Shown here: positions 1-41,332 of the stretch, one piece after another | How the letters are laid out: each line of letters starts with the position of its first letter | How positions within the stretch are numbered: the first letter of the stretch is position 1 | Origin: an uncultured Gammaproteobacteria bacterium | Lineage (GTDB): Bacteria; Patescibacteriota; Patescibacteriia; UBA9934 | NCBI GenBank assembly: GCA_964552565.1 | Contig: CAZKGL010000001.1 | Location: 567,060 to 626,815, forward strand | Direction: 5' to 3' | DNA: 59,756 bases | The notes under the pieces: model-generated | Database searches by the model: none | Seen by the model: only the letters and a program-made list of their open reading frames with translations | What the model was told of the DNA's origin: nothing | Made by a program: the position numbers and the translations under genes

Positions 1-552
1 CTTGGAGAGATAGATGGTAATTTTGTCGGTATCATAGCCCACCTGCATCGGTCCCTCGAATGCGGTGCCATCGGTGATGGACATAAAAGAGGAGATGGGC
101 GGCCGCAACGGGTCGAAACTCTTTTCTGCAATGAATGAACACGCGCCACCGGCTGCCAGTACGTCCCCCTGCTCGATGTCGAAAGTTGCGCCATCGTAAT
201 CCGGGTGGCATCCGCTCGGCTTGTATCCTGGAATGTTTTTCTCTGCGCAGATAAAGAATTCGACAGTAACTTGTTCTCGGAGCAGTTTGGCCGGAACCGA
301 GAAATGCTCGATGATTTTCCTTGTCGAATAGCTTCGTCGGAAGAATGTGTTCCGGCACTGCACTTCGAGCATGAATGCCGCGGAGCCGTTCCTAATCTGT
401 TCTTCAATAGCCTCGTTTTTGAGACTGAAATGCGGGGTTAGGATAACCTCTTCTTTTGCCAGTTCGTAACGGAAGTCTACATCGAATGTCCCCGCGAGGT
501 CGTCCTCGTTTCCGAGCACTGGATGCGGGTAAGATTTTGCATTAACCTTCAT
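1..552 (-). CDS. Hypothetical protein with N-terminal YPHPVLG motif (3'-truncated by window edge)
   Basis: Manual translation from ATG at 552: MKVNAKSYPHPVLGNEDDLAGTFDVDF...; open for 184 codons to base 1; overlaps the stop of the upstream GHKL gene by 11 nt; absent from the ORF track because no stop is in the window. Confidence 0.8.
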   Translation of the reverse strand, partial: MKVNAKSYPHPVLGNEDDLAGTFDVDFRYELAKEEVILTPHFSLKNEAIEEQIRNGSAAFMLEVQCRNTFFRRSYSTRKIIEHFSVPAKLLREQVTVEFFICAEKNIPGYKPSGCHPDYDGATFDIEQGDVLAAGGACSFIAEKSFDPLRPPISSFMSITDGTAFEGPMQVGYDTDKITIYLSK

Positions 553-2419
553 AGCTTTCGATTCCAACTGCGTATTTCTTCGGAGTGTTCAGACGGACGG
601 CGAGTTTCAGCGATTGCCCAGGCCTAACATGCAGGTTTTTGATGAGCGAACCCGCAATTTCGTATTGTTGCTTACTGTCGGTATCGGTGGCGCTTTTAAC
701 GTCTACGGGATAGCTGCCATCGTCGCCAACAGCCACGATACGCACTGCTCCGTCGGTCTCTTCTTTTCCTGAAATCACGAAGCGGTATTCGATGCCTTCC
801 GATGTTTTTTGAACGAAGCTCCTGAAGCTGATGTCGCCCGTGTTAATGCGCTTGTTCGCATCTTTGCCTTCTTCATCGCTGGCACCGGATGGGATGCGGC
901 TCTTGTCTCCTTTTGCATTGCCACCTGTATTGCTCTTCTTTCCAGGCGCTTCGCCTGAGGCGGTATTCTTCACGACCGTTGCCCTCCTGACTGTTCTTTC
1001 TACTTCTCGGGCGGCTGGCTCCTTTGACGCGCCGACTTCTCGTCCGCTTTCTTGCTCCTCCTGTTTAGAGGTCGGTTCTGCGAATTCCGGTTTTTCAGCA
1101 AGTTCCTCGTCTCTATTTTCGCTGTCAGGAAGATATCTATCGAGTCCGGGAATATCCTGCGGTTCATGCAGATTGTCTCCGGCCATGCTCTTCAACTTGT
1201 TTTTAATGAATTCATCCAGTTCTACGAGTGCCGCCCAGCCGTTTTTGGCGCCACGATACCTGTCCCACTTATCGTGTGCCGGAGGTTCAAGGTCGCGCAA
1301 TAGAGAGTTGCCTCGTTCATCCTCGCAAACAAATACCCCGGCATAAGGCTCTCGCAGAGAGCGATAGGCTTTTTCCTGGACGAGCATCTTGGGTTTTCTG
1401 GCCATCATGACCTTGCTGGGATAGCCGTCCTGCTTTTTTACATACAGGGTGACATGCCCGAGATGGCGCAATTCTTCGTCAAACCGCTGCGTTGGCTGAG
1501 TTACGGTCTCGAAGTAGCGCTTAGCGTCCTCTGCATCGAATTCCTCCAGCCTCTCCGCGAGAGTATCTTTCGAGATTATGATTTCCTCTCCATCCTTCAC
1601 GGAAACTTCAAGGTCTCCATTTAGAATTGCAAGCCAGAAATTTCCGAGGACGGAACGGATGAGGTCGGACTGCCAATTTTCATCCGATACATAGCCCATG
1701 ATGAAAATATCGGTACCGCGCTGCCTCCGTCGGAACAAGTCCGGAATCTGCTTTGAATCACGAACCGCGCGATACCCCTCGATTCCATAAAATCCCACCC
1801 CTTGTCGCATGTCGGACGTTTCATCTTTGTGGCTAACAAGACGGGCTTTGCCCTGGAAGACGGCCTCCCCTCTATCGTTCACGCTTGAGTAGAAGACGGT
1901 ACGCAATACGGACGCCGCAATTGGCGCACCTTTACCAATTCCGAACGAACCGCCGGTGGCGCCTTTAGGGGAACTGGTTCCAGTTGCTCGCACAAGACGA
2001 TACCAGTTTCCGGTATTATCATCGTCGGCCCCGGAAAGACCGACGGTGTTATAGTCGCTGATTTTAAGCACTGAGAGCTTTTCACCGCGCAAAACTTCCT
2101 GCGCATTTGTAAAAAACTGTATGGCCTTGTGCTGGCCTTTCATGTTTTCAAGGCAACGTTTGATGCGGCTTTGAAAGTCTTTACTTCCGGGAAACTCGGC
2201 GATGCCTACATCAAACCGCTCGAACGCTACACGGACGGGCTTGTCAGCTTCCAGGCGCGCATCTACTGCATTTTGAATAGTCTCGCGGGCGATATATTTC
2301 TCGTGGTCTCCCTGAAAATACTCGAGCAGAGAATCTGCGAAACCGTGTTCTTCGCCGTGGCTGGTGCTCGGGAAGTACCAGAAAATGTTTTTTGGCTTTC
2401 TGCTGAACAATTTAGGCAT
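542..2419 (-). CDS. GHKL (Bergerat-fold, MORC/HATPase-like) ATPase, 625 aa
   Basis: GHKL motifs in order: ETIQNAVDA, ISDYNTVG, GGSFGIGK, RGT; charged low-complexity linker and a C-terminal domain. Confidence 0.8.
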   Translation of the reverse strand: MPKLFSRKPKNIFWYFPSTSHGEEHGFADSLLEYFQGDHEKYIARETIQNAVDARLEADKPVRVAFERFDVGIAEFPGSKDFQSRIKRCLENMKGQHKAIQFFTNAQEVLRGEKLSVLKISDYNTVGLSGADDDNTGNWYRLVRATGTSSPKGATGGSFGIGKGAPIAASVLRTVFYSSVNDRGEAVFQGKARLVSHKDETSDMRQGVGFYGIEGYRAVRDSKQIPDLFRRRQRGTDIFIMGYVSDENWQSDLIRSVLGNFWLAILNGDLEVSVKDGEEIIISKDTLAERLEEFDAEDAKRYFETVTQPTQRFDEELRHLGHVTLYVKKQDGYPSKVMMARKPKMLVQEKAYRSLREPYAGVFVCEDERGNSLLRDLEPPAHDKWDRYRGAKNGWAALVELDEFIKNKLKSMAGDNLHEPQDIPGLDRYLPDSENRDEELAEKPEFAEPTSKQEEQESGREVGASKEPAAREVERTVRRATVVKNTASGEAPGKKSNTGGNAKGDKSRIPSGASDEEGKDANKRINTGDISFRSFVQKTSEGIEYRFVISGKEETDGAVRIVAVGDDGSYPVDVKSATDTDSKQQYEIAGSLIKNLHVRPGQSLKLAVRLNTPKKYAVGIESYEG

Positions 2420-2422
2420 ACA

Positions 2423-2641
2423 TTAAAGTTTGAATTCACCGTCTTTGTTTGGGAACGTGAACTTGGCTTTGACCTCGCGTACCCTTCGCTCAATTTCGGA
2501 GAAGATTTTTGCAACCTCTTCTTCTGAATAATCATAGTGGCTGCGGTTTGCGCAGTTTCCCAGGATTTTCAGACGGCGAAGCACCTCGTTTGTTCTTGCT
2601 GAGGCTAGCCGTTTAAAATTATCGCGTCTTTTATATTCCAT
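2423..2641 (-). CDS. Small basic helical protein (72 aa), possible controller-like regulator
   Basis: Intact ORF 3 nt upstream of the GHKL gene; preceded by a promoter-overlapping palindrome; function inferred from position only. Confidence 0.7.
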   Translation of the reverse strand: MEYKRRDNFKRLASARTNEVLRRLKILGNCANRSHYDYSEEEVAKIFSEIERRVREVKAKFTFPNKDGEFKL

Positions 2642-2661
2642 ACGTCAGGGAGTCAAAAACA

Positions 2662-2695
2662 ATGTAAATATGAAACATATTTACATATAGGTCAA
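2662..2695 (-). promoter_or_regulatory. Internal promoter with a perfect 11-bp inverted repeat (candidate operator)
   Basis: ATGTAAATATG-aaa-CATATTTACAT at 2662-2686; minus strand reads TTGACC-17 nt-CATATT across it. Confidence 0.5.
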
Positions 2696-2719
2696 CTTTT
2701 TAATAACAGACGCTATATT

Positions 2720-3133
2720 TTACCTGTCTTTAGCGATAAAATCGGCAATTTTTTCAAGGGTAGCGTCCGGCCTCACCTTTAGTTCATGTCCCCAGACTCG
2801 GAGAACACGCCATCCGTTTCTTCGGAGGTATCGGTGGTTCCGTTTATCTCGCTGTATATTTGATTCGATTTTTTCCTGCCAGTATTGGCCAGGAATTCTG
2901 CTCTTCCATTGTGTAAAGCGATAGCCATGCCAAAAATCACCGTCAATAAAAACGGCAATCTTCTTTGAGGGGACTGCGATGTCGGGTTTTCCTCGTACTC
3001 GACTGTAGTGCCGCTGGAAATGGATGCCGTTGCGGCGGAGATATGAAAACGCTGCTTTCTCTATGCCGGTATTCTTACTTCGAATCCTGGCCATTATCTG
3101 GCTCCTTTTTTCCCTTGAGAAGACATCCGCCAT
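2720..3133 (-). CDS. vsr: Very short patch repair endonuclease
   Basis: MADVFSREKRSQIMARIRSKNT, GKPDI, FIDGDFWHG, LRVW: Vsr signatures; start reassigned to 3133. Confidence 0.93.
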   Translation of the reverse strand: MADVFSREKRSQIMARIRSKNTGIEKAAFSYLRRNGIHFQRHYSRVRGKPDIAVPSKKIAVFIDGDFWHGYRFTQWKSRIPGQYWQEKIESNIQRDKRNHRYLRRNGWRVLRVWGHELKVRPDATLEKIADFIAKDR

Positions 3134-3137
3134 AAAC

Positions 3138-4100
3138 CTAAGACTCCAGTGCGATGCGGATGCTCTCGGCAATGCGGGCGATAACCGGGATTGTGACTGA
3201 GTTTCCCACCTGCTTATAGTGATAGCACGCCGCTTGGTTATCGGGAAAGACAAATGAATCTGGAAATCCCTGCAGGCGAGCGCACTCCCTTGGCGTCAGC
3301 TTTCTAATGCCGTTGGCATCCCGAACAATCGGTACGTTATGTCCTCCGACTCCCATGCTTGCCGTCAGCGTTGGGCATACGCCGCTCTTGTTTTCGCGTA
3401 CATAAACGCGGCGGTACTGATAGACTTTGTCCTTGCGTTTAGCGATGGCCTTTAATTTGGGGAAGATGTACTTATCTTCGGGGCCATAGTAATACTTTTC
3501 ATCGACTTTTTTCTCGAGAACGCCGTTCATTGTTTTGGTGAGCGGAATCGGCTCTGGCCACCGGAATTTAAGCATGGTCTTCGGATTGCTGAACCCGACG
3601 ATATAAACGCGTTCACGAGTCTGCGGAACATTGCCAAAGTGCATACTGTTCAGCACCTTGGCTTCAATTGTGTAGCCCGCATTATGCAGCTCTTCGCTAA
3701 CCCTTTTGAACGTTTCTCCGTGGTCGTGATTAATGAGGTGCTTTACGTTCTCCAGGAAAATCGCCCTCGGTTTTCTCGCTTTCAAGATTTCAATTACAGC
3801 AAACAGCAAATCGCCGCGCCCCTTATCGGCGAAGCCTCGTTTATGGCCGGCGATGGAAAATGGCTGACATGGGAAGCCGCCGAGCAGGATGTCAAAACGC
3901 TTGGGAACTCGTTTCATCCCTGGTTCTTTGATAACGTCAAAAAGATTAGCGACGTCGATTTCGCCGAAATTGAGCCTATAGGTTTCCGCCGCCTTTTGGT
4001 CGATGTCATTCGAATATGCAATATCAAAACCAGCGGCTTCAAAACCGATACGAACGCCCCCGACACCGGCGAATAGGTCAATAGCTCTTAAACTGTCCAT
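3138..4100 (-). CDS. C5-cytosine DNA methyltransferase
   Basis: DLFAGVGG, GFPCQPFS, FLENV, QTRERVYIVG, YKQVGNSV motifs; start reassigned to 4100. Confidence 0.97.
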   Translation of the reverse strand: MDSLRAIDLFAGVGGVRIGFEAAGFDIAYSNDIDQKAAETYRLNFGEIDVANLFDVIKEPGMKRVPKRFDILLGGFPCQPFSIAGHKRGFADKGRGDLLFAVIEILKARKPRAIFLENVKHLINHDHGETFKRVSEELHNAGYTIEAKVLNSMHFGNVPQTRERVYIVGFSNPKTMLKFRWPEPIPLTKTMNGVLEKKVDEKYYYGPEDKYIFPKLKAIAKRKDKVYQYRRVYVRENKSGVCPTLTASMGVGGHNVPIVRDANGIRKLTPRECARLQGFPDSFVFPDNQAACYHYKQVGNSVTIPVIARIAESIRIALES

Positions 4101-4502
4101 GTTTCTTTGAAAAAGTCGGGATATTACGTGGTGCAATCATACCAGTTTGAGGCCGTTTAATAAAATAAGTTGTCCGCAGTGTTTGAGCGGGTACAGAGAC
4201 TCGAGGAATGTTCGGTTTTTTTTAATGCCGGAGGGACTTAAAATGCGTTATAAATAACGCATGAGTTTGTACGGCTTGCGACTATAAGCGCAGGATATTA
4301 TACTGTCACTACAATTGAGCCTAAACCAAGCGTTTCCACGTTCGGCATGGCACTTAAACCCAACCAGGATACTGAACCCGTCGTTCAGCAATCCTGGTTG
4401 GTCGTACCCCGAAAGGGGTGCGTTGTCCCGAAAGGGGCAAAAGCTGGCGGCGGGCTTTGTGTTTGCCGACAGTCGAATAAACACCCAACCAACCAGGGTA
4501 AT

Positions 4503-4892
4503 ATGAAAAAATGTCCATTTTGCGCCGAAGAGGTGCAAGACGCGGCGGTGAAGTGTAAGCACTGCCAGAAGTCTTTGAGTTCAGTAACGCCAAGTCAAGC
4601 AATCCAGACAGAGGTCATCAAGCCCCAGACTGAATACGCCAGGACGCTTGGAGCCAAAGTTGGGAACGTGTTCGGCGTTTTCATTATCATTGGCGGTATT
4701 GTCAATCTCGTTCAGCCGACCAAGGAGATGCCGCCGCTGGCCAGCCTATTTGTAATACTCTTTGGCCTCGCGCTCATGGATTTCCATATGCCGTGGCTGA
4801 AGCGTAAGTGCAGCCTGAAAACGATTGATAGGCTGCGTGTCGGCATTCCTGTCGGCATTCTTTTCGTGCTTGTCATTCTTTCCGCTCTTTAA
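4503..4892 (+). CDS. Zinc-ribbon membrane protein
   Basis: MKKCPFCAEEVQDAAVKCKHC followed by three hydrophobic segments. Confidence 0.8.
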   Translation: MKKCPFCAEEVQDAAVKCKHCQKSLSSVTPSQAIQTEVIKPQTEYARTLGAKVGNVFGVFIIIGGIVNLVQPTKEMPPLASLFVILFGLALMDFHMPWLKRKCSLKTIDRLRVGIPVGILFVLVILSAL

Positions 4893-4893
4893 T

Positions 4894-5403
4894 ATGCAGA
4901 CCAAGAAATGCCCATTCTGCGCGGAGGACATCGTTAATGAGGCAGTGTATTGCAAACACTGCAAAAGCGACCTATCGGCCAAGGCCCAGCCAGCGAAGAA
5001 AAAGACGGGGCTTAATTGCGTAGGCGCAGCAGTCTTCTTCGGTGCTTTATTCTTCATCCTCATGCTTGGCGCAGCGGCTACGATGGATACAACGAGCCTT
5101 TCTACTGAAACTGATACAGCGTTCCATGAGCCAAACATTTGCGATATCAACTCCTACGTTGCTGGCGCGGTGATTCAGGGCTATGCTAAGTATCCTGACG
5201 AGGCAAAGCAGTCATGCACTTACGCTAGCATGAAGGACTTGGGTAATCACGAGTACGAAATTAACGGCTACGTCAAGGCAAAGAACGCATTTGGAGTAGA
5301 AGGGCGTATCTATTACACGGTTGTCATGCGCTATAAGGGTGGAACAACAAATGATTTCGACAATTGGGAATTGGTCAGTGGTCCGGAAATCACGACCGAA
5401 TAA
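4894..5403 (+). CDS. Zinc-ribbon membrane-anchored protein
   Basis: MQTKKCPFCAEDIVNEAVYCKHC, one TM segment, soluble C-terminal domain. Confidence 0.8.
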   Translation: MQTKKCPFCAEDIVNEAVYCKHCKSDLSAKAQPAKKKTGLNCVGAAVFFGALFFILMLGAAATMDTTSLSTETDTAFHEPNICDINSYVAGAVIQGYAKYPDEAKQSCTYASMKDLGNHEYEINGYVKAKNAFGVEGRIYYTVVMRYKGGTTNDFDNWELVSGPEITTE

Positions 5404-5638
5404 AGATTATCCACAGTATCAGCTTGAAGGAATCCGTTTTATGTGCTAAATGTAGCTCATCATCAAAGCGTGATACGCGACCGAGACCCATTCTCGGCGA
5501 CTGGCATTTCGGCCAGTGTGCTACCCGCATAGTCGGCTTCAGCACGTCGCTCGCGCCCTAGACCATACGATTGTCATAGTGCATCCCCCTGACCCACGGG
5601 CGCTCTATGACTTTTCGTTTTTATAGGGTCAGGGGCCT

Positions 5639-6589
5639 ATGCCTGAGAAAAAGTTAGAGGAACTGTTCGAGGAGTTTCTTTACGAATGCGATAACGTTGC
5701 CCGTTTGCGTCCAGAAACGCTAAAGGGCTACCGAGCAGCATTCGACTTGCTCATGAAGGTTGGAGAGAATTCCACTCTGACAACCATTCAGGAGCCAAAG
5801 TTCATGACGAACTTCTTTGCCAATTTACGCACACGTCCGCGTAAGGTTGGGAAAGATACGTTCACTAGCGGAATCAAGGAGAGTACAAGCGCAACGTATC
5901 ACGCGAAGCTTAAGAAGTTCTTCCGGTGGCTAAAGGCAAGGGACTACATCAAGGAGAATCCCTTCGACAAGATGGTTGCGCCGAATGTCGAGTATCTCGA
6001 TAGGAAGTTTCTTAAAAAAGAGGACGTTCACAAGTTGTTCCATGCTTGCAACTTGGTGATTCGTTGGGAAAACGATTTCGTTCGTCGCCGCAATCTCGCC
6101 ATGCTCGCCGCGTTGCTGTATTGCGGCTTGCGTCGCGGTGAGCTGCTTGGCCTGGAATTGCGTGATGTAGACCTGGAGCGCCGCGTGCTGACGGTACGTG
6201 GCGAGACGTCGAAGTCAAAACACATGCGGCGTATTCCGCTCAATGTCGAAGTAATGCGAACTTTTGAAGACTATCTTCGCGCCCGCGGAGCGCAAGGTGT
6301 CAACACATCAGCATTGTGGGCATCTAGCACTGAACACAGCGGACTTACGAGAGACGGTTTGAAGCACTTGGTCACTAAGCTGAATCGGGAGTCGGGAGTG
6401 AAGTTCCACATCCATCAGCTACGGCACACCTTTGCCGTCAACCTCTTAGCTCAAAGCGTCGATGTCGCAAAGATTCAGCAGCTCATGGGCCACAAAGATA
6501 TCAGGATGACCGCCAAGTATGTCCGATGTTTCCCGGCTGATGAAATGCGCAACGATGTAGCGTCACTCAATTTTGACCAACTAATTTAG
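5639..6589 (+). CDS. Tyrosine recombinase/integrase (XerC/D-like fold)
   Basis: GLRRGE, HQLRHTFA, LMGH and KYV catalytic motifs. Confidence 0.95.
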   Translation: MPEKKLEELFEEFLYECDNVARLRPETLKGYRAAFDLLMKVGENSTLTTIQEPKFMTNFFANLRTRPRKVGKDTFTSGIKESTSATYHAKLKKFFRWLKARDYIKENPFDKMVAPNVEYLDRKFLKKEDVHKLFHACNLVIRWENDFVRRRNLAMLAALLYCGLRRGELLGLELRDVDLERRVLTVRGETSKSKHMRRIPLNVEVMRTFEDYLRARGAQGVNTSALWASSTEHSGLTRDGLKHLVTKLNRESGVKFHIHQLRHTFAVNLLAQSVDVAKIQQLMGHKDIRMTAKYVRCFPADEMRNDVASLNFDQLI

Positions 6590-6598
6590 CCCTATAGT

Positions 6599-6859
6599 AT
6601 GAATAATCAGCAAGAACAAGAGGGAGAAGTTTTAAAGAATATCCTTATTCTTTGCAATCACTGTCGGCACGCCTGGTCACCCGTTCTAGTTGATGAAGAC
6701 CACGTATCTGACGCTACCAGCCGATGCTCGAAATGTCATAGCGCCGACTGGTCCGGCTATCTTCATGTGATAGATTCAAAGCACGACTTAAATTGGCGCA
6801 CTTTCGAGACCCTTATCGAGAGTGAGGAGATTATGGAATTAGGTATGAAGATGTCATAA
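6599..6859 (+). CDS. Small CxxC..CxxC protein directly after the integrase
   Basis: CNHC and CSKC; 9 nt after the integrase stop. Confidence 0.6.
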   Translation: MNNQQEQEGEVLKNILILCNHCRHAWSPVLVDEDHVSDATSRCSKCHSADWSGYLHVIDSKHDLNWRTFETLIESEEIMELGMKMS

Positions 6860-6953
6860 AAGTTGTAGGCGGAGGGACTAGTTGCGGAAAATCTGAAACC
6901 GAAGGCCGCCAAGCTGATTGGCGGCCTTGTACGTCTATTAAATTCGCAGCGGA

Positions 6954-8033
6954 TTATCCTGTGCCGACGATGTACTCAGCTCGCTTTAAAAGCTCGTCAA
7001 AAGTGAGTATTTCGATACCCGTGACACTTTGTCTAAATCTCTGGAAAGTGTCTCTCGCATCCCGCCTTTCTGCGATGCTCGCCAATCTGCCGATTATGAG
7101 AATGCCACTTGGCGACGTCGTATATGCCTTTTTACTTTCCAGCTTGTCACTGTTGGTGGCTAGCCGCGAGCCGTTGTTATCCCATTGGCAACAATTGGCT
7201 TGTAGTTGAGTAATACCATCGGTTAGCTCGTTCGCTAGACTCCATGCGCCATTTCTCTGAGCATCGGCACCCTTCAATAGTCGAGTAGCTGGCGTTTTAA
7301 TTTCCACCAGTACAGTAAAACCAATGTCGCCCTCGGTCACGCAGAGGATATCGCCTTTTTCTCCGCCGGAACCGTCCATGGCGACTCCGCCGTAATGCGG
7401 TTGGGATTGTTCGAGCCTCAGAATCTGATAGTTTAGACCGTAACCGAAAATCCACTTGTTAGCTTCGAAGAACTTCTGCCAGTAGGACTCCTGTCCATCG
7501 CCCTTTGTCTCGAGGCTGATTCTATATTCTTCCAGCACTTTCTTCCTTGCCGCTTGCAAGTGGCCAAGAGATAATTTTGTAGCTAATCCGGGGTCATTTT
7601 TCTCCAGCTCTCCCCAGAAGTCACTAGGGTAATCTCCGCTCAGCAGCTGTTTAATAACTTGGTATTTGTTTTCTTCCGTAACCGTAAGTACGTTGGATTT
7701 TTCCACGACGGCATACTGCCGAGTGCCGTTAGGAATCCCTTGATTAACGATTTCTTGTCTCGTGGCGACTCCAGCTACGAGCTTAGCGAGTTCAGCGGTT
7801 CCAATTTCAATTTTTACCCCTTCATTAAGTTTAAGTTTTCGGAAGTCCTCCTCAGGTATCTGCTCCCAGTCCTGTCCGCGCTCCTTCTTAAATCTTACAA
7901 GACGACCACGAACACCTCCGTTGTGCACTTCCGGCTGAAACACCAAACAAGTTGTAGGTGTTTGCTCGAGCAGTATCCAGTCAGTTTTAGCGAATCCACG
8001 GCCTACGGTTTGCGTGGTTATAACTTCTCCCAT
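6954..8033 (-). CDS. sduA: Shedu anti-phage nuclease (DUF4263 family)
   Basis: ESYWQKFFEANKWIFG, KGDIL, VLVEIKTP, GITQL, GILIIGR, EILTFDEL pattern typical of DUF4263. Confidence 0.85.
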   Translation of the reverse strand: MGEVITTQTVGRGFAKTDWILLEQTPTTCLVFQPEVHNGGVRGRLVRFKKERGQDWEQIPEEDFRKLKLNEGVKIEIGTAELAKLVAGVATRQEIVNQGIPNGTRQYAVVEKSNVLTVTEENKYQVIKQLLSGDYPSDFWGELEKNDPGLATKLSLGHLQAARKKVLEEYRISLETKGDGQESYWQKFFEANKWIFGYGLNYQILRLEQSQPHYGGVAMDGSGGEKGDILCVTEGDIGFTVLVEIKTPATRLLKGADAQRNGAWSLANELTDGITQLQANCCQWDNNGSRLATNSDKLESKKAYTTSPSGILIIGRLASIAERRDARDTFQRFRQSVTGIEILTFDELLKRAEYIVGTG

Positions 8034-8266
8034 ATTAGTAGGAATTCTAGAACATCAGCCTTTGCTGCCAGTAAGTTGAGGCATTCTATTGGCTCATATA
8101 TAATATAGAGACAATCTAGCATACATATTCATTCAAAAGAACATCAGAAACCTCACTGAGTTCGCGGCAAAAAACGGGTCTATCGTTAAGGGGGTAAGAA
8201 ACTTGCCAAAAGTAACTTTCTTCCTTATACTCTGCACCATTCCTACCAATTCCCCTATGGGAACTT

Positions 8267-8312
8267 CATGGTAAGGATGAGGTCTCGGGTTCAATCCCCG
8301 ACTGTGGCTCCA
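8267..8312 (+). pseudogene. 3' half of tRNA-Thr(GGT): attachment-site duplication
   Basis: CATGGTAAGGATGAGGTCTCGGGTTCAATCCCCGACTGTGGCTCCA has the GGT loop, T-arm and CCA; upstream bases give no D-arm and cannot pair with the acceptor or anticodon stems. Confidence 0.87.
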
Positions 8313-33532: not shown

Positions 33533-33973
33533 ATGTCCCCCTACCCCGCGATCCTCGCCGCCATCCGCGACCTGAACGAAGACTTCATCGACCAACAGAC
33601 CTGCGCCGACCGCTGTGAGGCTGCCGTCGCCGAGCTCACGCCGCGCACGCAGGACGACCCGAAGGCGAAGGCCTTCGCGCTCGCCGTGCTGTGCGTCGTG
33701 GAGAACAAGCCCGGCGACGACTCCTGGCAGGAGCTCGGCCGCGTGATGGTCGGCTTCGGCCGCGGTGAGGACGGCAAGACCGTCGGCGGCGACCCGGAGC
33801 TCCACGAGCTCCACATGGCGCTGCTGCGGCGTCGCGTGTACAGCCGCGCCTTTCACGGCGGCCTCTCCGGCCTCGGCCGCATGCTGGCCGGGCGCACCGG
33901 CTACGAGCGCATCGGCCAGGAGGGACGTGAAGAACGACGGCGCGGCCTGCGCCGTGCCACCGACCTCTCGTAG
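33533..33973 (+). CDS. Orphan protein (146 aa)
   Basis: TGGACA-18 nt-TAGTAT promoter, GGAGG RBS, high GC3. Confidence 0.75.
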   Translation: MSPYPAILAAIRDLNEDFIDQQTCADRCEAAVAELTPRTQDDPKAKAFALAVLCVVENKPGDDSWQELGRVMVGFGRGEDGKTVGGDPELHELHMALLRRRVYSRAFHGGLSGLGRMLAGRTGYERIGQEGREERRRGLRRATDLS

Positions 33974-34105
33974 TATCCGTCCGACCGCGCCCGCCACGCT
34001 CACGTCTCGAGCGCGGCGGGCTCGTCATTTTTCGCCAAGAAGGGCGATTTTTTGTTGACAAAACACCAAAAAAATGGTTGTATGGATGCGCATCCCGGAG
34101 GTTTG

Positions 34106-34465
34106 ATGTCCGCACAGCCCCTTCACGTCCCCGGTGAAGTCGACACCACGCTCGACAACAGCGTCGCCTTCTACGTCGGCTACGTCGAGCTCAACAAGAT
34201 CCTCGTGATCCGCAAGAGCGCCGATCTCGTCGCGATCCCCGGGACCGACATGCACCTGCAGTTCCGTCCCGGTGAGTCGGGCCGCGTCGACAACGGCGTG
34301 ACCGTCTACTACGCCGACGGCATCGGCAAGCGGCAGACCGAGGCGCTCAGCCACGGCATCTGGCTCAAGCACCCGCTCGGCGCGGAGCACTTCCCGCTCA
34401 CCGGCCGCGTCACCCTGCGCGTGTTCACGAGCAAGGAGGACGCCCGCCACGCGCTCACCTCGTAG
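34106..34465 (+). CDS. Orphan protein (119 aa)
   Basis: TTGACA at 34055, GGAGG RBS, high GC3. Confidence 0.75.
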   Translation: MSAQPLHVPGEVDTTLDNSVAFYVGYVELNKILVIRKSADLVAIPGTDMHLQFRPGESGRVDNGVTVYYADGIGKRQTEALSHGIWLKHPLGAEHFPLTGRVTLRVFTSKEDARHALTS

Positions 34466-34560
34466 CCCGCGTCGAGGCCGTCGACGCACGCGAACGCCCC
34501 ACCACCGTCGGGGCGTTCTGCATTTCTGGTATACTCTCCGCATCATTCTTTTCTTTTTCT

Positions 34561-35016
34561 ATGCGGAAAGTTTCTGTGCTCGCCGCGTCCGTCCTCCTGC
34601 TTGGCGCAGGATGCGCAGGGGGTGCAACGGTCGATGCGAACGATATCGACACTGACGTTTTCACGCTTCGCGTGCCGGACGTGGTGACGACCGAGGGAGA
34701 GAGCGGCGGATGGCGTTTGCAGAACTTCGAGGGAAGCGATGATCCACGCGCCGAGTACCCCGAGGATGCGTTTTTCATCGAGATCCGCGAGGACGTCTCG
34801 TACGACGACTTTGTCGCAAGCTACGAAGAGGTCGAAAAGACCGAACTCGCGGGCGAGGAGGTTTGGATGGGCCTCAACGGCACGCTCGGCGGCGAGACAT
34901 GGCCGCACGACGCGTACTACCACGAGCCGTCCGGCACGCTCATCGTGACATACTACGAAGACGTCGGCGGTGTCATTGCCGCGGAGATCGTCGTCCAAGC
35001 GATCGAATGGAAATAA
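34561..35016 (+). CDS. Small lipoprotein
   Basis: LLGAGC lipobox. Confidence 0.8.
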   Translation: MRKVSVLAASVLLLGAGCAGGATVDANDIDTDVFTLRVPDVVTTEGESGGWRLQNFEGSDDPRAEYPEDAFFIEIREDVSYDDFVASYEEVEKTELAGEEVWMGLNGTLGGETWPHDAYYHEPSGTLIVTYYEDVGGVIAAEIVVQAIEWK

Positions 35017-35054
35017 CCCGGTAGCATAAAACGCCCGTCCGGGCGTTTTATGAT

Positions 35055-38046: not shown

Positions 38047-38075
38047 TTGACAAACCGTCAATTTTTTGCTATAGT
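38047..38075 (+). promoter_or_regulatory. Near-consensus sigma70 promoter driving the orphan array
   Basis: TTGACA-17 nt-TATAGT with TG extension. Confidence 0.85.
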
Positions 38076-38079
38076 AGAA

Positions 38080-38328
38080 AACGTACACTGCCCGTTGTTT
38101 CAGCGGGTTTCACAACCAGGAGAGAGCGCGGCACCGGCGTAGACGGGGTGCACCCCAAAGTACGGAATCACCGTACCCCACGGGGAAAGGCGGGATTGTC
38201 TCTCTTTGCAAAAAGGGCGGTAATCTCGCCTTTTGCGTTGCTCCCATGGCACTCGATTCCATCGAATGCCGCGGGAGCGGACGCATGTGCGACCGCTGAC
38301 ATCCACCCCTTCCCTCCTGGAGGATTCA
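38080..38328 (+). ncRNA. ~250-nt structured leader or ncRNA
   Basis: At least six consecutive helices between the promoter and the first GTG. Confidence 0.5.
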
Positions 38329-38649
38329 GTGAAGAATTTCACCCTGAACGACGACGGCATGCTGACCCCCCGGGCCCGCATGCTCCTCGACGAAGCAATG
38401 AACAAGATGGACGCCGTCCGGGACGGCGACGTGTGCGAGATCGCCACCGACGGCGTCGGATGGACGATCTTGCGGGACGGCTACCCCATCGAGGTGCAGG
38501 CCGCGCGCGACGCCCAGATCCTCGCGGCGACGAAGGGGGCGCTCTGCTGCTCCCTCATCCCCGATGAAGGCGTCGTCATCTTCGTCAAGGATCCCGAGCT
38601 CGATGCGGAGCTCGGGCGCTGGATCGCCAACCAGCGCATGCACGCCTAG
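38329..38649 (+). CDS. Orphan protein (106 aa, GTG start)
   Basis: GGAGG RBS, high GC3. Confidence 0.7.
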   Translation: MKNFTLNDDGMLTPRARMLLDEAMNKMDAVRDGDVCEIATDGVGWTILRDGYPIEVQAARDAQILAATKGALCCSLIPDEGVVIFVKDPELDAELGRWIANQRMHA

Positions 38650-38652
38650 CCC

Positions 38653-38737
38653 CTCGCGGAGGGAGCACGTCACACGACGCGTCTCCGCTCCCTCCGCAGG
38701 TCCCCAGAGCGCTCACGATGTGAACGCTGCGGGGACC
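38653..38737 (+). repeat. REP-like double-hairpin element (array spacer 1)
   Basis: CTCGCGGAGG..TCCCTCCGC-AG-GTCCCC-AG-..-GC-GGGGAC. Confidence 0.7.
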
Positions 38738-38767
38738 GCGTAACACTTGTTCGCGGCAGAGGTCCAC

Positions 38768-39163
38768 ATGTACACGCACATCCTGGTGCTCTTCTTCGAC
38801 CCGAAGGATCCGTCCCTCCCGCAGTACGCGGTGAGGGCCGGCGTCCGTGGGCAGGTCTGCGACCGGCGCTACTCGGAGTTCACGGTCATCTGCACGGCGA
38901 AGACCCGTCAGGAGATCCTCCGCGCGGTCGCGAAGGCCGACGATGCCCTCGCGCTCCAGATGGAGGAGGACTCCGCGCTCCCGCCGATCTCCGCCTGGCG
39001 CGCGGTCGACGAAGCGATCCGGGGGGTCGACGGCATCACGATGATCACCCGCAACGTCGACATCGACGTGCGCCACTCGGCCTGGAAGAAGACGCGCGTC
39101 GGCCGCCAGTTCCGCGGCACGCACGAGACCGACCGCTACGCCTGGATCACCCGCGCCGCCTGA
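38768..39163 (+). CDS. Orphan protein (131 aa)
   Basis: GAGG RBS, high GC3. Confidence 0.75.
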   Translation: MYTHILVLFFDPKDPSLPQYAVRAGVRGQVCDRRYSEFTVICTAKTRQEILRAVAKADDALALQMEEDSALPPISAWRAVDEAIRGVDGITMITRNVDIDVRHSAWKKTRVGRQFRGTHETDRYAWITRAA

Positions 39164-39193
39164 CGGCGCACAACCCTGTACCTGGAGCATCCC

Positions 39194-39388
39194 ATGAACG
39201 CACGCACGGTCAGCATCGACTACCTCATCGGCCGCCGCATCGCCGCCCTGCCCGATCTGACGCACCTCGACCCCGAGGACGTCGGCGACACGCAGCGGGC
39301 TCGGATCGAGGAGATCGTCGAGGACGTGCAGTCCGAGCACGAGATCACGGTCGACGAGGACGACGAGTCCGCGTTCGACTGCTGGTAG
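39194..39388 (+). CDS. Orphan acidic protein (64 aa)
   Basis: GGAG RBS, high GC3. Confidence 0.65.
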   Translation: MNARTVSIDYLIGRRIAALPDLTHLDPEDVGDTQRARIEEIVEDVQSEHEITVDEDDESAFDCW

Positions 39389-39403
39389 CCGAACAACACC
39401 GCG

Positions 39404-39527
39404 CTCGCGGAGGTTGAGGCGCATGTCTCCCGCCTCCCTCCGCCAGCCCCCAGAGTTCTCGATTCATCCACATGTCGAAACTTAGTTTCGAAACTAAGTT
39501 TCGACATGAATCGAGGATTGCGGGGGC
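39404..39527 (+). repeat. REP-like double-hairpin element (array spacer 2) containing a perfect 38-bp palindrome
   Basis: Homologous to 38653-38737; palindrome at 39471-39508. Confidence 0.8.
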
Positions 39528-39570
39528 CATCGCAGCTGTCGCTGCGGTGTTGAAACCTACGGAGGTGCCT

Positions 39571-39792
39571 ATGTACCCCATCGTTGCCGCCGGCGTCTTC
39601 ACGCAGTTCGCGGAAGCCCGAGCGCTGCTCGCGATGCCTGAAGCAGACCAACGCGCATGGCTCGCCACCCGCATGCCCGAGCTCGAGGTGAATCTCGCAT
39701 TCGAGCTGATCATCGAGGCGACGCGCGAGCTGGTCGCGCGTGAAGACAGCCGCGCGCCGAGCAAGCCCGGGTTCGACGACTGGCCGACCTAG
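39571..39792 (+). CDS. Orphan protein (73 aa)
   Basis: GGAGG RBS, high GC3. Confidence 0.7.
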   Translation: MYPIVAAGVFTQFAEARALLAMPEADQRAWLATRMPELEVNLAFELIIEATRELVAREDSRAPSKPGFDDWPT

Positions 39793-39843
39793 GCCGCCTT
39801 CCGCGGGCACGCGCGGACGTGCCTGCTGGACACGTCAGTTCCA

Positions 39844-39900
39844 GCAGCCCCCAGAGTTTCCGAGACTAAGTCGAGACTAAGTCTCGGGGATTGCGGGGGC
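39844..39900 (+). repeat. REP-like hairpin (array spacer 3) with GACTAAGTC doublet
   Basis: GCAG-CCCCC-AG-AGTTTCCGAGACTAAGTCGAGACTAAGTCTCGGGGATT-GC-GGGGG. Confidence 0.8.
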
Positions 39901-39967
39901 GGAGGATGTTATTGAAGAAACCATCGCCCACCCCCCTACCAACCCCAGCCCTTCACTCGGAGGGAGC

Positions 39968-40372
39968 ATGCGCCTGCATGCGCTCATCGCCGTCGTCGAC
40001 GGCTGTCTGGGGCCCGAGGTGCACGCGATCTCCCTGTCGTGTCCCTCGATGGAGTTCAGCGCGCGCCTCGCGAAGGCGCACGCCGAGAGCATGACGCGGT
40101 CGCGTCGGCCGAACGAGTTCTGGCAGCCGGGCTACCCGTGCTACCTGGTCTCGGTCCCGATCGATGATGACATGCGTGAGGCCATCACCCACGCGGCCGG
40201 CACGGCCGGTGCGTGGACCGCGTGGTGGATCGCGACGAACCTCGTGCCGCTCCTCGAGTGCCGCGAGGCCGCCGTGGCCGCCACCGTGTGCGCCACCTGC
40301 CCCAGGATCCAGATCTGCTCCATCGAGAACCCGATTGAGAGGTTCATCGCGACCGCCCTCGCGGTCTGCTGA
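39968..40372 (+). CDS. Orphan Cys-containing protein (134 aa)
   Basis: GGAGGGAG RBS, high GC3. Confidence 0.7.
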   Translation: MRLHALIAVVDGCLGPEVHAISLSCPSMEFSARLAKAHAESMTRSRRPNEFWQPGYPCYLVSVPIDDDMREAITHAAGTAGAWTAWWIATNLVPLLECREAAVAATVCATCPRIQICSIENPIERFIATALAVC

Positions 40373-40480
40373 CACGTGCTGCAGGAGCGTCAACCGATTG
40401 ACGACGTTCCTGCATCCGTATGAACACCGGAGGAATCCTTCGATGTTCATAAGGAGAAATGCTTAAGCCAAAGCAGAGGT

Positions 40481-40546
40481 ATGAACACCCTACTTTACCT
40501 GACGACGAGTACACTGGCCGGCATCATGGTCATCGGCCTTGGCTAA
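40481..40546 (+). CDS. 21-aa hydrophobic peptide (type I toxin-like)
   Basis: MNTLLYLTTSTLAGIMVIGLG; GAGGT RBS; structured leader and strong terminator. Confidence 0.4.
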   Translation: MNTLLYLTTSTLAGIMVIGLG

Positions 40547-40584
40547 CACAACCCCGGCGTGAGCACCATGCTTGTTCGCGCCGG

Positions 40585-40626
40585 AAACTCAAGAGCCGTG
40601 CACTCTCTCGCACGGCTCTTGAGTTT
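40585..40626. terminator. Bidirectional terminator with a 17-bp perfect stem
   Basis: AAACTCAAGAGCCGTGC-ACTCTCTC-GCACGGCTCTTGAGTTT. Confidence 0.85.
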
Positions 40627-41332
40627 ATGAGAGTAACGTCCCCTTGAATTCCTTCCCTTCGACCACCTTTTCCAAATTCACGATATTCCTTCCGTCGACG
40701 ATGGCGACCTGGATGCCATGCCGCTGGCAATATTTCGACGCAACCGGGTCAAACGGCGCGGACAGTCCCGGGTCCCACGCATCACCCACCATCGTGCGGT
40801 ACTCATGCCACGTCATCTCCTTCACCGGCTTGGCGTTCCGGTCCTTCTTCGGGTCCGCGGTGAACACGTATTCAATGTTGCTCGCATTCACGATGTGCTT
40901 GATCCCAAGTACGCCCGCAATGCGGCTTGCGACGTAGTCCGTCGACCAGCCCGGTTTCCACCCTGCGGCCACGAGCACCTTCTCTTTCCAGTGCGTCGGC
41001 GTACGCATCGGGTTCTTGATGATTTGCGGGTGCGCAATACCACGGAAAATGGTGCGGAGCAAATGGCCGTTGAGACGCGTCGCGTGGATGCCGAGCCAGT
41101 CGAGGTCTTCGGGGTCGATCGGCGCCACCTCGCTCGCGGCACCGATGTAATTGCGGCTCGTCCGTCCGCCGCCGCAGATCATGACAACCTTATGGCCGTG
41201 GCGGACGAGGTCGACGATGAAATTGTGGAAGGCCTTCAGGAAGTACGCGTCGGGGCCGCCGGCCGGCGCGATGAGCGACCCGCCGAGCGAGAAGATGATC
41301 GGTTCGTGTTTCGCGAGGTGCAATTTGGGCAT
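40625..41332 (-). CDS. pyrH: UMP kinase (archaeal-like)
   Basis: SLGGS, CGGG, PGWSTD, DPKK, PFDPVA. Confidence 0.93.
   Translation of the reverse strand: MPKLHLAKHEPIIFSLGGSLIAPAGGPDAYFLKAFHNFIVDLVRHGHKVVMICGGGRTSRNYIGAASEVAPIDPEDLDWLGIHATRLNGHLLRTIFRGIAHPQIIKNPMRTPTHWKEKVLVAAGWKPGWSTDYVASRIAGVLGIKHIVNASNIEYVFTADPKKDRNAKPVKEMTWHEYRTMVGDAWDPGLSAPFDPVASKYCQRHGIQVAIVDGRNIVNLEKVVEGKEFKGTLLS

Follow-up and report, generated by a model that had tools for sequence, protein, structure and literature searches.

A repeated two-hairpin module and a predicted structured leader RNA in arrays of small orphan genes of Patescibacteria

Between positions 38047 and 40626 of a 59,756-nucleotide stretch of Patescibacteria (candidate phyla radiation, CPR) DNA (contig CAZKGL010000001.1 of assembly GCA_964552565.1; hereafter the window, 59.7 kb), five small and mostly orphan open reading frames (ORFs) follow a strong promoter and a conserved leader, and are interspersed with a repeated pair of fused hairpins, here termed hairpins A and B. 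Patescibacteria have tiny genomes and cannot so far be cultured on their own, and very little of their non-coding biology has been charted; the source of this DNA is such a groundwater bacterium, with a tiny, high-G+C genome of roughly 840 kb. Based on covariation, on searches with a covariance model and on pattern scans, the family of hairpin B is real, is kept by selection on pairing, and is limited to one subclade, in which it is found only in arrays of orphan ORFs. The module most likely acts on messenger RNA rather than as a site of gene capture, and there is, in our judgement, an even chance that its copies are intercistronic RNA elements which punctuate and stabilise a regulated polycistronic mRNA encoding fast-evolving small proteins. 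In Rfam and among the papers searched, nothing matched either the module or the leader, and the two-hairpin element looks undescribed.

Anatomy of the two-hairpin module

Four copies of hairpin B (E0 to E3) are present in the window, all on the + strand and within about 1.7 kb. Three of these, E1 to E3, had been recognized in a first-pass annotation as related hairpins in the gaps between the ORFs, an observation that was upheld and extended by the finding of a fourth member, E0, in the leader. E0 (38240..38278, +; GCTCCC AT GGCAC..ATGCC GC GGGAGC) lies 50 nt before ORF1, and E1 (38699..38737, +; GGTCCCC AG AGCG..CGCT GC GGGGACC) 30 nt before ORF2; with the covariance model R1, described below, they score 26.6 and 29.2 bits on the + strand and 12.9 and 15.2 bits on the - strand, respectively. 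The other two copies are longer: E2 (39446..39527, +; 82 nt, 43 nt before ORF4) possesses a long top with a duplicated GAAACTWAGTTTC palindrome and folds at -50.6 (+) versus -44.8 (-) kcal/mol, while E3 (39847..39900, +) spans 54 nt and is located 67 nt before ORF5. Upstream of E1 stands the variable hairpin A1 (38656..38697, +; GCGGAGGGAGC..GCTCCCTCCGC), which is paralogous to hairpin A2 (39407..39443, +; GCGGAGG..CCTCCGC) upstream of E2, and the upstream hairpin CTCGCGGAGG..GTCTCC..TCCCTCCGC that E1 and E2 had been said to share is indeed common to both. E3 is preceded by two short hairpins (39806..39845, +), the second of which, A3 (GCTGGA..TCCAGC), abuts it. The sequence CCCCAGAG occurs three times in the 59.7 kb, each time in the array, and the two-part hairpin motif gives 2 matches versus 0.03 expected.

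Hairpin B consists of a basal G/C stem of 5-7 bp, an A.C mismatch, a second stem, in most cases beginning with AG/YU, and a free top. The first-pass annotation had read the mismatch as a 2x2 loop with AG opposite GC; the mismatch is present, although it is better described as a conserved A.C beside the basal stem plus a variable N.G. The GCAG/CCAG foot that it had assigned to the hairpins turned out to be the 3' arm of the upstream hairpin A, and it is not conserved in relatives. Hairpin A is variable and G+C-rich, and is kept in structure only, with hairpin B fused 0-3 nt 3' of it. This abutment is found in every intercistronic copy that was read, namely three in the window and five, three and one in the related contigs L033, L040 and L038, respectively, and in E0-type copies the terminator hairpin of the leader stands in the place of hairpin A. 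Downstream of hairpin B there is a CA-rich unstructured spacer (often RAACAC), then a GGAGG Shine-Dalgarno sequence and a start codon, the latter 26-67 nt from the hairpin, and such a hairpin lies at this distance 5' of every translational unit, including the first. No member of the hairpin B family follows ORF5 or the last array ORF of L040 or L038, the B hairpins lack a T-run, and no internal promoters were seen within the array.

Short palindromes also recur within the modules. The pair CAACTGACA..TGTCAGTTG forms hairpin A twice in L040 (7119-7148 and 6637-6669, -) and is nested inside hairpin B in L038 (~7712-7745, -), while E2 and E3 carry GAGACTWAGTCTC or GAAACTWAGTTTC in duplicate in their tops (39471-39508 and 39862-39886), and the H1 hairpin of L033 has it once.

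Conservation and covariation of the hairpin family

Covariation was assessed in an alignment of the basal 14+14 nt of 14 distinct copies, in which the trimmed stems were joined by an artificial GAAA loop. In this alignment 94.6% of the cells are paired and 11 of the 12 pairs show changes on both sides, whereas in controls none of 500 shuffles reached the observed pairing and slid registers were 36-51% paired. R1, built from the same trimmed stems, assigned 19-32 bits to short-topped copies on the coding strand versus 11-19 bits on the opposite strand. It recovered copies in the arrays of relatives and no further copy elsewhere in the 59.7-kb window, where the next best score was 13.8 bits. R1 undercounts the family, since the long-topped copies (E2, E3 and that of L038) are missed.

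All 15 of the hairpin B copies are on the coding strand. By our count, the 12 basal pairs hold 16 G.U cells versus 5 C.A/A.C cells, and hairpin B is more stable on the + strand in 10 of the 15 copies, with summed energies of -419.6 (+) and -378.9 (-) kcal/mol. Folding energies of the whole gaps show no strand bias, which is thus confined to the B hairpins themselves.

Beyond the arrays, the E2/E3-type pattern GCCCCCAGAG-N34-64-TTGCGGGGGC was sought in 185,579 species genomes, where it had 28 single matches in unrelated phyla, approximately the number expected by chance and none of them in a relative. A looser hairpin pattern gave 120 chance matches in viral contigs, in 100 of which (836 kb) R1 found no copy, and the family was likewise absent from the contigs L162 and L163 when these were scanned with R1.

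Promoter and leader RNA

The array is headed by a sigma-70-type promoter (38047..38075, +; TTGACA-17-TATAGT) with a TG extended -10 element (TGnTATAGT). The earlier description of this promoter as near-consensus was borne out, as it agrees with the consensus at 11 of 12 positions and is the best-scoring site within 8.5 kb. Its -35 region is a palindrome (TTGAC-N5-GTCAA), and it is near-identical in L033 and L034. A scan of metagenomes with the promoter pattern gave three matches, all in other Patescibacteria with different downstream genes: the core TTGACAAAnnGTCAnTTTTTTGCTATA occurs verbatim upstream of unrelated genes in L035 (5376-5402, -), L036 (316-342, -) and L037 (23-49, +), contigs that differ widely in G+C, some being A+T-rich. 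The occurrence of one core before unrelated genes indicates that this is a generic strong promoter, and the palindromic core may represent either a shared strong-promoter design or an operator.

The leader upstream of the ORFs, which had also been noted before, is supported by the fold of 38080-38335 (-117 kcal/mol, z = -5.3). Within it, a conserved structured RNA of ~155 nt (38082..38236, +) was delineated by RNAalifold on a manual alignment of three lineages (window, L033 and L034) that was checked against the sequences. It comprises, all on the + strand, helices Pa (38131-38135/38147-38151), Pb (38153-38156/38182-38185) and Pc (38160-38165/38171-38176), as well as Pd (38186-38233), a long terminator-like hairpin followed by UUUU. 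Among the 35 leader pairs, 8 are changed on both sides and 4 on one side. Pd and its U-run have the form of an intrinsic terminator and are kept in 3/3 lineages, so that a conserved structured domain is followed by an intrinsic terminator upstream of genes, as in riboswitches and attenuators. Judging from the sequence, the conserved leader segment GGAGAGAG could pair with CUCUCUUU in upper Pd, in which case the lower 10-12 bp of Pd would persist. With Rfam, no family reached its gathering threshold in the window except LOOT RNA at 4318-4439, and between 37900 and 40700 no score was better than noise.

Related arrays at the same and at a second locus

The array species is represented by one strain only (its records are 100% or 99.7% identical), and all comparisons are between distant genera. 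The relatives compared were L033, L034, L038, L039 and L040, whose ABC ATPase is 66-76% identical to that of the window; another contig, L041, begins inside the operon and contributes no array, and two proteins of the window that were looked up had no record. L033 (ABC ATPase 66% identical) carries the same locus with the same promoter and leader. Its array encodes ORFs of 174, 162, 88, 91 and 129 aa, each with an A-B module upstream, in comparison with 106, 131, 64, 73 and 134 aa in the window, and a sixth A-B module is located 3' of the last ORF, at the contig end. Only ORF2 is common to both arrays, and content therefore differs between these relatives, as the first-pass description of a cassette-like array had anticipated, with one hairpin family confined to arrays of orphan ORFs; the order of what is shared, on the other hand, is the same. 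The shared markers, namely the leader, the ORF1-type 5' untranslated region (5'UTR), and the GGTCCCC-type hairpin together with ORF2, are collinear, which fits vertical descent with gain, loss and divergence of units, and no shuffling is seen.

Several details connect the copies across these lineages. Homologues of E0 are present at 3673-3711 in L033 and at 280-314 (-) in L034, and the unusual GGTCCCC base of E1 is also found upstream of the ORF2 homologue in L033 (5843-5882). E3 equals the L033 hairpin H1 except for an 11-nt internal duplication, with 41/43 positions matching. The modules are mosaic, as the H1 hairpin is like E3 while its 3' flank is like the flank of E0. The first two L033 ORFs share a TFRMEG motif (E = 0.007), and this pair, together with the paralogous A1 and A2, points to growth of the arrays by tandem duplication. 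In L034, where the membrane fusion protein (MFP) is 57% and the ABC ATPase 73% identical, the promoter is followed by a leader in which compensatory changes are numerous, then by a hairpin of the E0 type and a first ORF that differs.

In L038, L039 and L040 (ABC ATPase 73-75% identical) the array is missing at the MFP-adjacent site. There, the holin gene of L038 and of L039 abuts the MFP gene, and L040 has just one ORF, which is unrelated and ends in a T-run terminator. In these three lineages the hairpin family is found at a second locus, an array of small ORFs between rplJ and MacB; the L038 and L040 copies first surfaced in a very permissive hairpin scan. L040 possesses three near-identical copies (GCCCGC AG AGTTCATCTC nnn GAGGTGAATT GC GCGGGC), L038 one copy whose top encloses a palindrome, and L039 two diverged copies in an array that has a plain promoter, a short 5'UTR and no such leader. 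The rplJ-MacB locus of the window (33533-35018, +) holds three small ORFs without Pfam matches, each closed by a T-run terminator behind which a separate promoter-like sequence lies, and the hairpin family is not present there.

The orphan ORFs and the end of the array

The five ORFs had been described as small and unrelated, and this holds: comparison with one another revealed no similarity, and none matched a family in Pfam, PHROG, NCBIfam or PADLOC. Their G+C content at third codon positions (GC3) is 0.84-0.96, like or above that of core genes (0.79-0.87), indicating that all five are real coding sequences. ORF1 (38329..38649, +; 106 aa, GTG start, GC3 0.925) is an orphan whose 5'UTR (38283-38328) is homologous to that of the second L033 ORF. 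ORF2 (38768..39163, +; 131 aa) is the sole array ORF with a homologue. The search returned one real homologue, P0003 (129 aa, 46-48% identical depending on the alignment), which is the fifth ORF of the L033 array, and two low-complexity matches. An AlphaFold2 model of ORF2 (pLDDT 70) predicts a beta-beta-beta-alpha-alpha-beta arrangement for residues 1-97, and this predicted fold has no match in the PDB. ORF3 (39194..39388, +; 64 aa) is very acidic and begins 30 nt 3' of ORF2 with no hairpin in the gap, for which reason ORF2 and ORF3 are regarded as one translational unit. ORF4 (39571..39792, +; 73 aa) and ORF5 (39968..40372, +; 134 aa) are orphans, the latter matching itself only among 5.8 billion proteins. 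The C-terminus of ORF5 carries C-X9-C-X2-C-X5-C, a cysteine spacing (40256-40372) reminiscent of the WhiB-like Fe-S motif, for which the PHROG 'WhiB-like regulator' match is just E = 0.2.

Between ORF5 and the terminator there are two hairpins of a different kind (40380..40458, +), the second of which encloses a vestigial AACAC-GGAGG-ATG 5'UTR and a 7-codon ORF. Such a vestige with a 5-7-codon ORF lies between the last ORF and the terminator both in the window (40428-40458) and in L040 (~5735-5690, -), and it may represent either a unit that has decayed or a terminal mini-ORF with a function. The unit is closed by a perfect 17-bp hairpin (40585..40626), shared with the convergent pyrH, which is probably a bidirectional terminator.

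Genomic setting

To the left of the array, on the minus strand, lie core genes of a MacB-type ABC exporter (MFP, ABC and MacB), the MFP gene being the one divergent from the array, and to the right an archaeal-type pyrH is followed by a holin_4_2-family gene and xseB/xseA. The nearest homologues of the ABC ATPase of the locus are labelled Candidatus Uhrbacteria or Patescibacteria group. The pyrH gene (40625-41332, -) scores 178 bits, above the cut-off, on the archaeal model TIGR02076 and 42 bits on the bacterial model, and it is not at this position in L038-L040.

The G+C content of the window is 0.60-0.70 outside positions 1-8300, which form a low-G+C island (0.45-0.52) that looks like an integrated defence or mobile island. 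It carries a 625-aa ORF without Pfam match (542-2419, -), a C5 DNA methyltransferase (3138-4136, -), the LOOT RNA (RF03000; 4318-4439, +; 81 bits), a Xer-like tyrosine recombinase (5639-6589, +) and a Shedu SduA defence gene (6954-8033, -).

The same DNA is present in the NCBI metagenome-assembled genome (MAG) GCA_016177675.1 and in Logan assemblies of SRR12113420. The MAG differs from the window by a single-nucleotide polymorphism at 39080 (G to T, Ala to Ser within ORF2) and by a 31-nt tandem duplication at ~34943 that would shift the reading frame of the third small ORF between rplJ and MacB, and its contig is without stretches of 126 nt and 77 nt near 29.1 and 27.7 kb. In SRR12113420 two Logan contigs break with a 22-nt overlap at 39479-39500, inside the perfect palindrome atop E2, which most probably stems from the assembly graph and has no biological meaning.

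A proposed role in messenger RNA and alternative explanations

It is suggested that the region would function as one regulated transcription unit, in which a strong housekeeping-type promoter fires into the leader RNA of ~155 nt, whose 3' hairpin and U-run may serve as an attenuator or as the end of a stand-alone small RNA, and in which read-through transcripts would carry a string of small, fast-evolving, lineage-specific proteins. A conserved trans factor, possibly an RNA-binding protein or else an RNase Y-, III- or P-type ribonuclease, would recognize the module in the mRNA. Hairpin A would cap the preceding cistron at its 3' end and hairpin B the following cistron at its 5' end, and each cistron would thereby gain a separate stability and translation level. 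The B copies are direct repeats and should therefore favour duplication and deletion of units, and such events are proposed to explain why the number and content of ORFs differ between lineages. This role in mRNA is favoured by the sense-strand copies, the G.U excess and stability, the position before translational units, the absence of T-runs and the layout of the 5'UTRs. In this regard, the succession of a 5' hairpin, an unstructured CA-rich spacer and a Shine-Dalgarno sequence is that of stabilised 5'UTRs, and the T-less B hairpins are not terminator-like, given that the organism ends other small genes with hairpin-plus-T-run terminators. Traits of intercistronic RNA stem-loops are seen at the sequence level (one predicted unit, sense strand, no U-tract, no internal promoter), together with compensatory substitutions. 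It has been shown that intergenic cleavage by RNase Y in saePQRS is guided by a double-stranded element and takes place just 5' of it, and that the downstream product is stabilised (PMC5449607).

Several points weigh against this reading. Co-transcription, processing and the trans factor are deduced from sequence; the covariation alignment of the hairpins uses trimmed stems and an artificial loop, and that of the leader is manual with just three sequences. The strand bias is moderate, with E0, E1, H0 and the copy of L034 favouring the - strand and three copies being ties. The basal stem and parts of some tops are more conserved in sequence than simple end-capping needs: E3 and H1 agree so closely across genomes whose ABC ATPase is 66% identical, and the GAGACTWAGTCTC and CAACTGACA palindromes recur. 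Finally, turnover of ORFs would also be expected of mobile cassettes.

The last point leads to the possibility that hairpin B is a DNA recombination site at which a recombinase encoded elsewhere inserts, excises or shuffles units of hairpin B, UTR and ORF, in an integron-like manner but without attC sites. We consider this unlikely, and no less unlikely the more specific proposal of a Patescibacteria cassette system that would move units into a promoter-plus-leader platform at two preferred loci, on either side of the MacB exporter operon, as an integron analogue with neither attC nor IntI; the data are better read otherwise than as gene capture through site-specific recombination. The ORF content of the window and L033 is almost wholly different at the same locus, where L038 and L039 have no array ORF at all and L040 has a single unrelated one, and the hairpin family appears at a second locus in other lineages. 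Moreover, the modules are mosaic, E3 and H1 are near-identical across very divergent genomes, the B copies are near-identical within one array (L040), as attC sites are in chromosomal integrons, and rAID-1 provides a precedent for non-integron arrays with repeated intergenic sequences (10.1101/471110). However, none of the six loci is adjoined by a recombinase or HUH gene, and the sole tyrosine recombinase of the window is the Xer-like one, 32 kb off in a foreign-looking low-G+C island, which scores 48.6 bits on the integron integrase model TIGR02249 versus a cut-off of 265 bits, so that the window contains no integron integrase. Reading of the sequence revealed no attC cores (R'' RYYYAAC / R' GTTRRRY), the arms GCCCCCAGAG / YTGCGGGGGC being without AAC...GTT. 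The site is 5' of each ORF with none after the last, the shared markers are collinear, the sense strand folds better in 10 of the 15 copies, and no circulating pool of cassettes is visible, inasmuch as the codon bias of the ORFs is native and homologues elsewhere are almost lacking. The first-pass annotation had proposed, along these lines, an integron-like platform serviced by a REP-associated tyrosine transposase (RAYT; REP, repetitive extragenic palindromic), a mechanism that these observations speak against. No Y1/HUH RAYT gene (PF01797) was found among the ORFs scanned across the 60-kb window, nor is a REP-like tetranucleotide foot conserved, the flanks in L033, L038 and L040 being CCTC, CCCC, GTCCC, CAGG, CACC and others.

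A transcriptional role was also considered, in which the hairpins would be pause or termination signals lacking U-tracts and the leader would render RNA polymerase processive, as phage put or Bacillus EAR do, so that expression grades along the array. The conserved structured leader directly after a strong promoter and the stable G+C-rich tandem hairpins before every cistron would suit this idea, but it is improbable: elsewhere the organism uses ordinary terminators with T-runs, a terminator-like hairpin closes the leader itself, the arrays of L038-L040 carry the hairpins although that of L039 is without such a leader, and the conserved sequence of the B base would be left unexplained. Quite improbable is the view of the hairpins as selfish palindromic repeats, comparable to REPs or to miniature inverted-repeat transposable elements (MITEs), that colonise permissive gaps without a host function. 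Recurrent palindromes, even nested ones such as the hairpin A of L040 inside hairpin B of L038, and the duplicated motifs in the tops of E2 and E3 are in line with it, yet there are none of these elements elsewhere in the 59.7-kb window, in the 836 kb of viral contigs or in L162/L163, and the species-genome scan with the E2/E3-type pattern gave chance-level single matches only. Furthermore, the hairpins have a fixed orientation and a fixed distance to the start codons, compensatory changes maintain the basal motif from genus to genus, and no transposase is present. That the palindromes are double-stranded DNA operators bound by a dimeric repressor of internal promoters is very improbable, even if some tops are perfect palindromes (GAGACTTAGTCTC) and the -35 region of the promoter is also palindromic, because pairing rather than sequence is kept, the conserved A.C mismatch and the AG/GC asymmetry break dyad symmetry, the stems range from 17 to 38 bp, and internal promoters were not seen. 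A CRISPR-like array, type III toxin-antitoxin repeats, a retron and a diversity-generating retroelement were rejected, as unit size or neighbouring genes do not fit.

These findings add two candidate RNA motifs from outside Rfam, the leader of ~155 nt and the repeated two-hairpin intercistronic module, both of them conserved between lineages that are only 66-76% identical in core proteins. Both are tied to arrays, predicted to be highly expressed, of orphan proteins with fast turnover, a likely type for interactions with hosts or phages. Punctuation of RNA, if true, would imply a dedicated processing factor and a natural insulator of cistrons, and a DNA site, if true, would imply a new gene-capture system; under either reading, the motif provides a searchable marker for hypervariable small-protein loci in Patescibacteria.

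Comparison with known systems

The array resembles integron arrays, arranged as Pc-attI-[ORF-attC]n, and clusters of attC sites lacking an integron-integrase (CALINs) in having one promoter and co-oriented small and mostly orphan ORFs. Further common traits are imperfect hairpins, conserved at the base and variable at the top, that are alike within an array, and a gene content that varies between genomes. In contrast to these, there is no intI here, a structured leader with a terminator stands in place of attI, and the site precedes the ORF with none after the last, the reverse of ORF-attC, with the coding strand folding better in most copies. The rAID-1 clusters of Bacteroidales are likewise long co-oriented arrays of diverged orphan genes with repeated integron-like intergenic sequences (10.1101/471110). 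Those arrays are headed by a conserved XerD-family recombinase and display a skewed G+C content and recognizable immunity genes (10.1101/471110), whereas the present array has neither an adjacent recombinase nor skewed G+C, and its ORFs match no immunity-gene or other family. With the REP/RAYT system the hairpins have in common that they are short, G+C-rich, imperfect intergenic palindromes with an internal mismatch, but a conserved GTAG-like foot is missing. REPs are dispersed in many copies, often as inverted pairs beside ordinary genes, whereas the copies in the window share a single orientation and lie close together.

As for the leader, a strong promoter, a covarying multi-helix domain and a hairpin plus U-run before an operon are typical of riboswitch and attenuator leaders and of terminated small RNAs with read-through, while the present leader, without an Rfam match, is known from the sequence of three lineages. 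Stem-loops that act in mRNA between cistrons include the stabilisers of Escherichia coli of the malE-malF type, formed by REPs or bacterial interspersed mosaic elements (BIMEs). Together with these and with the sae stem-loops, the module belongs among stable sense-strand hairpins between cistrons that have no U-tracts. It departs from them in serving only orphan small ORFs, being absent from the rest of the 60 kb, and in that its processing is so far predicted, and it is further distinguished as a sequence-conserved fused pair of hairpins with an A.C mismatch that is repeated before every cistron.

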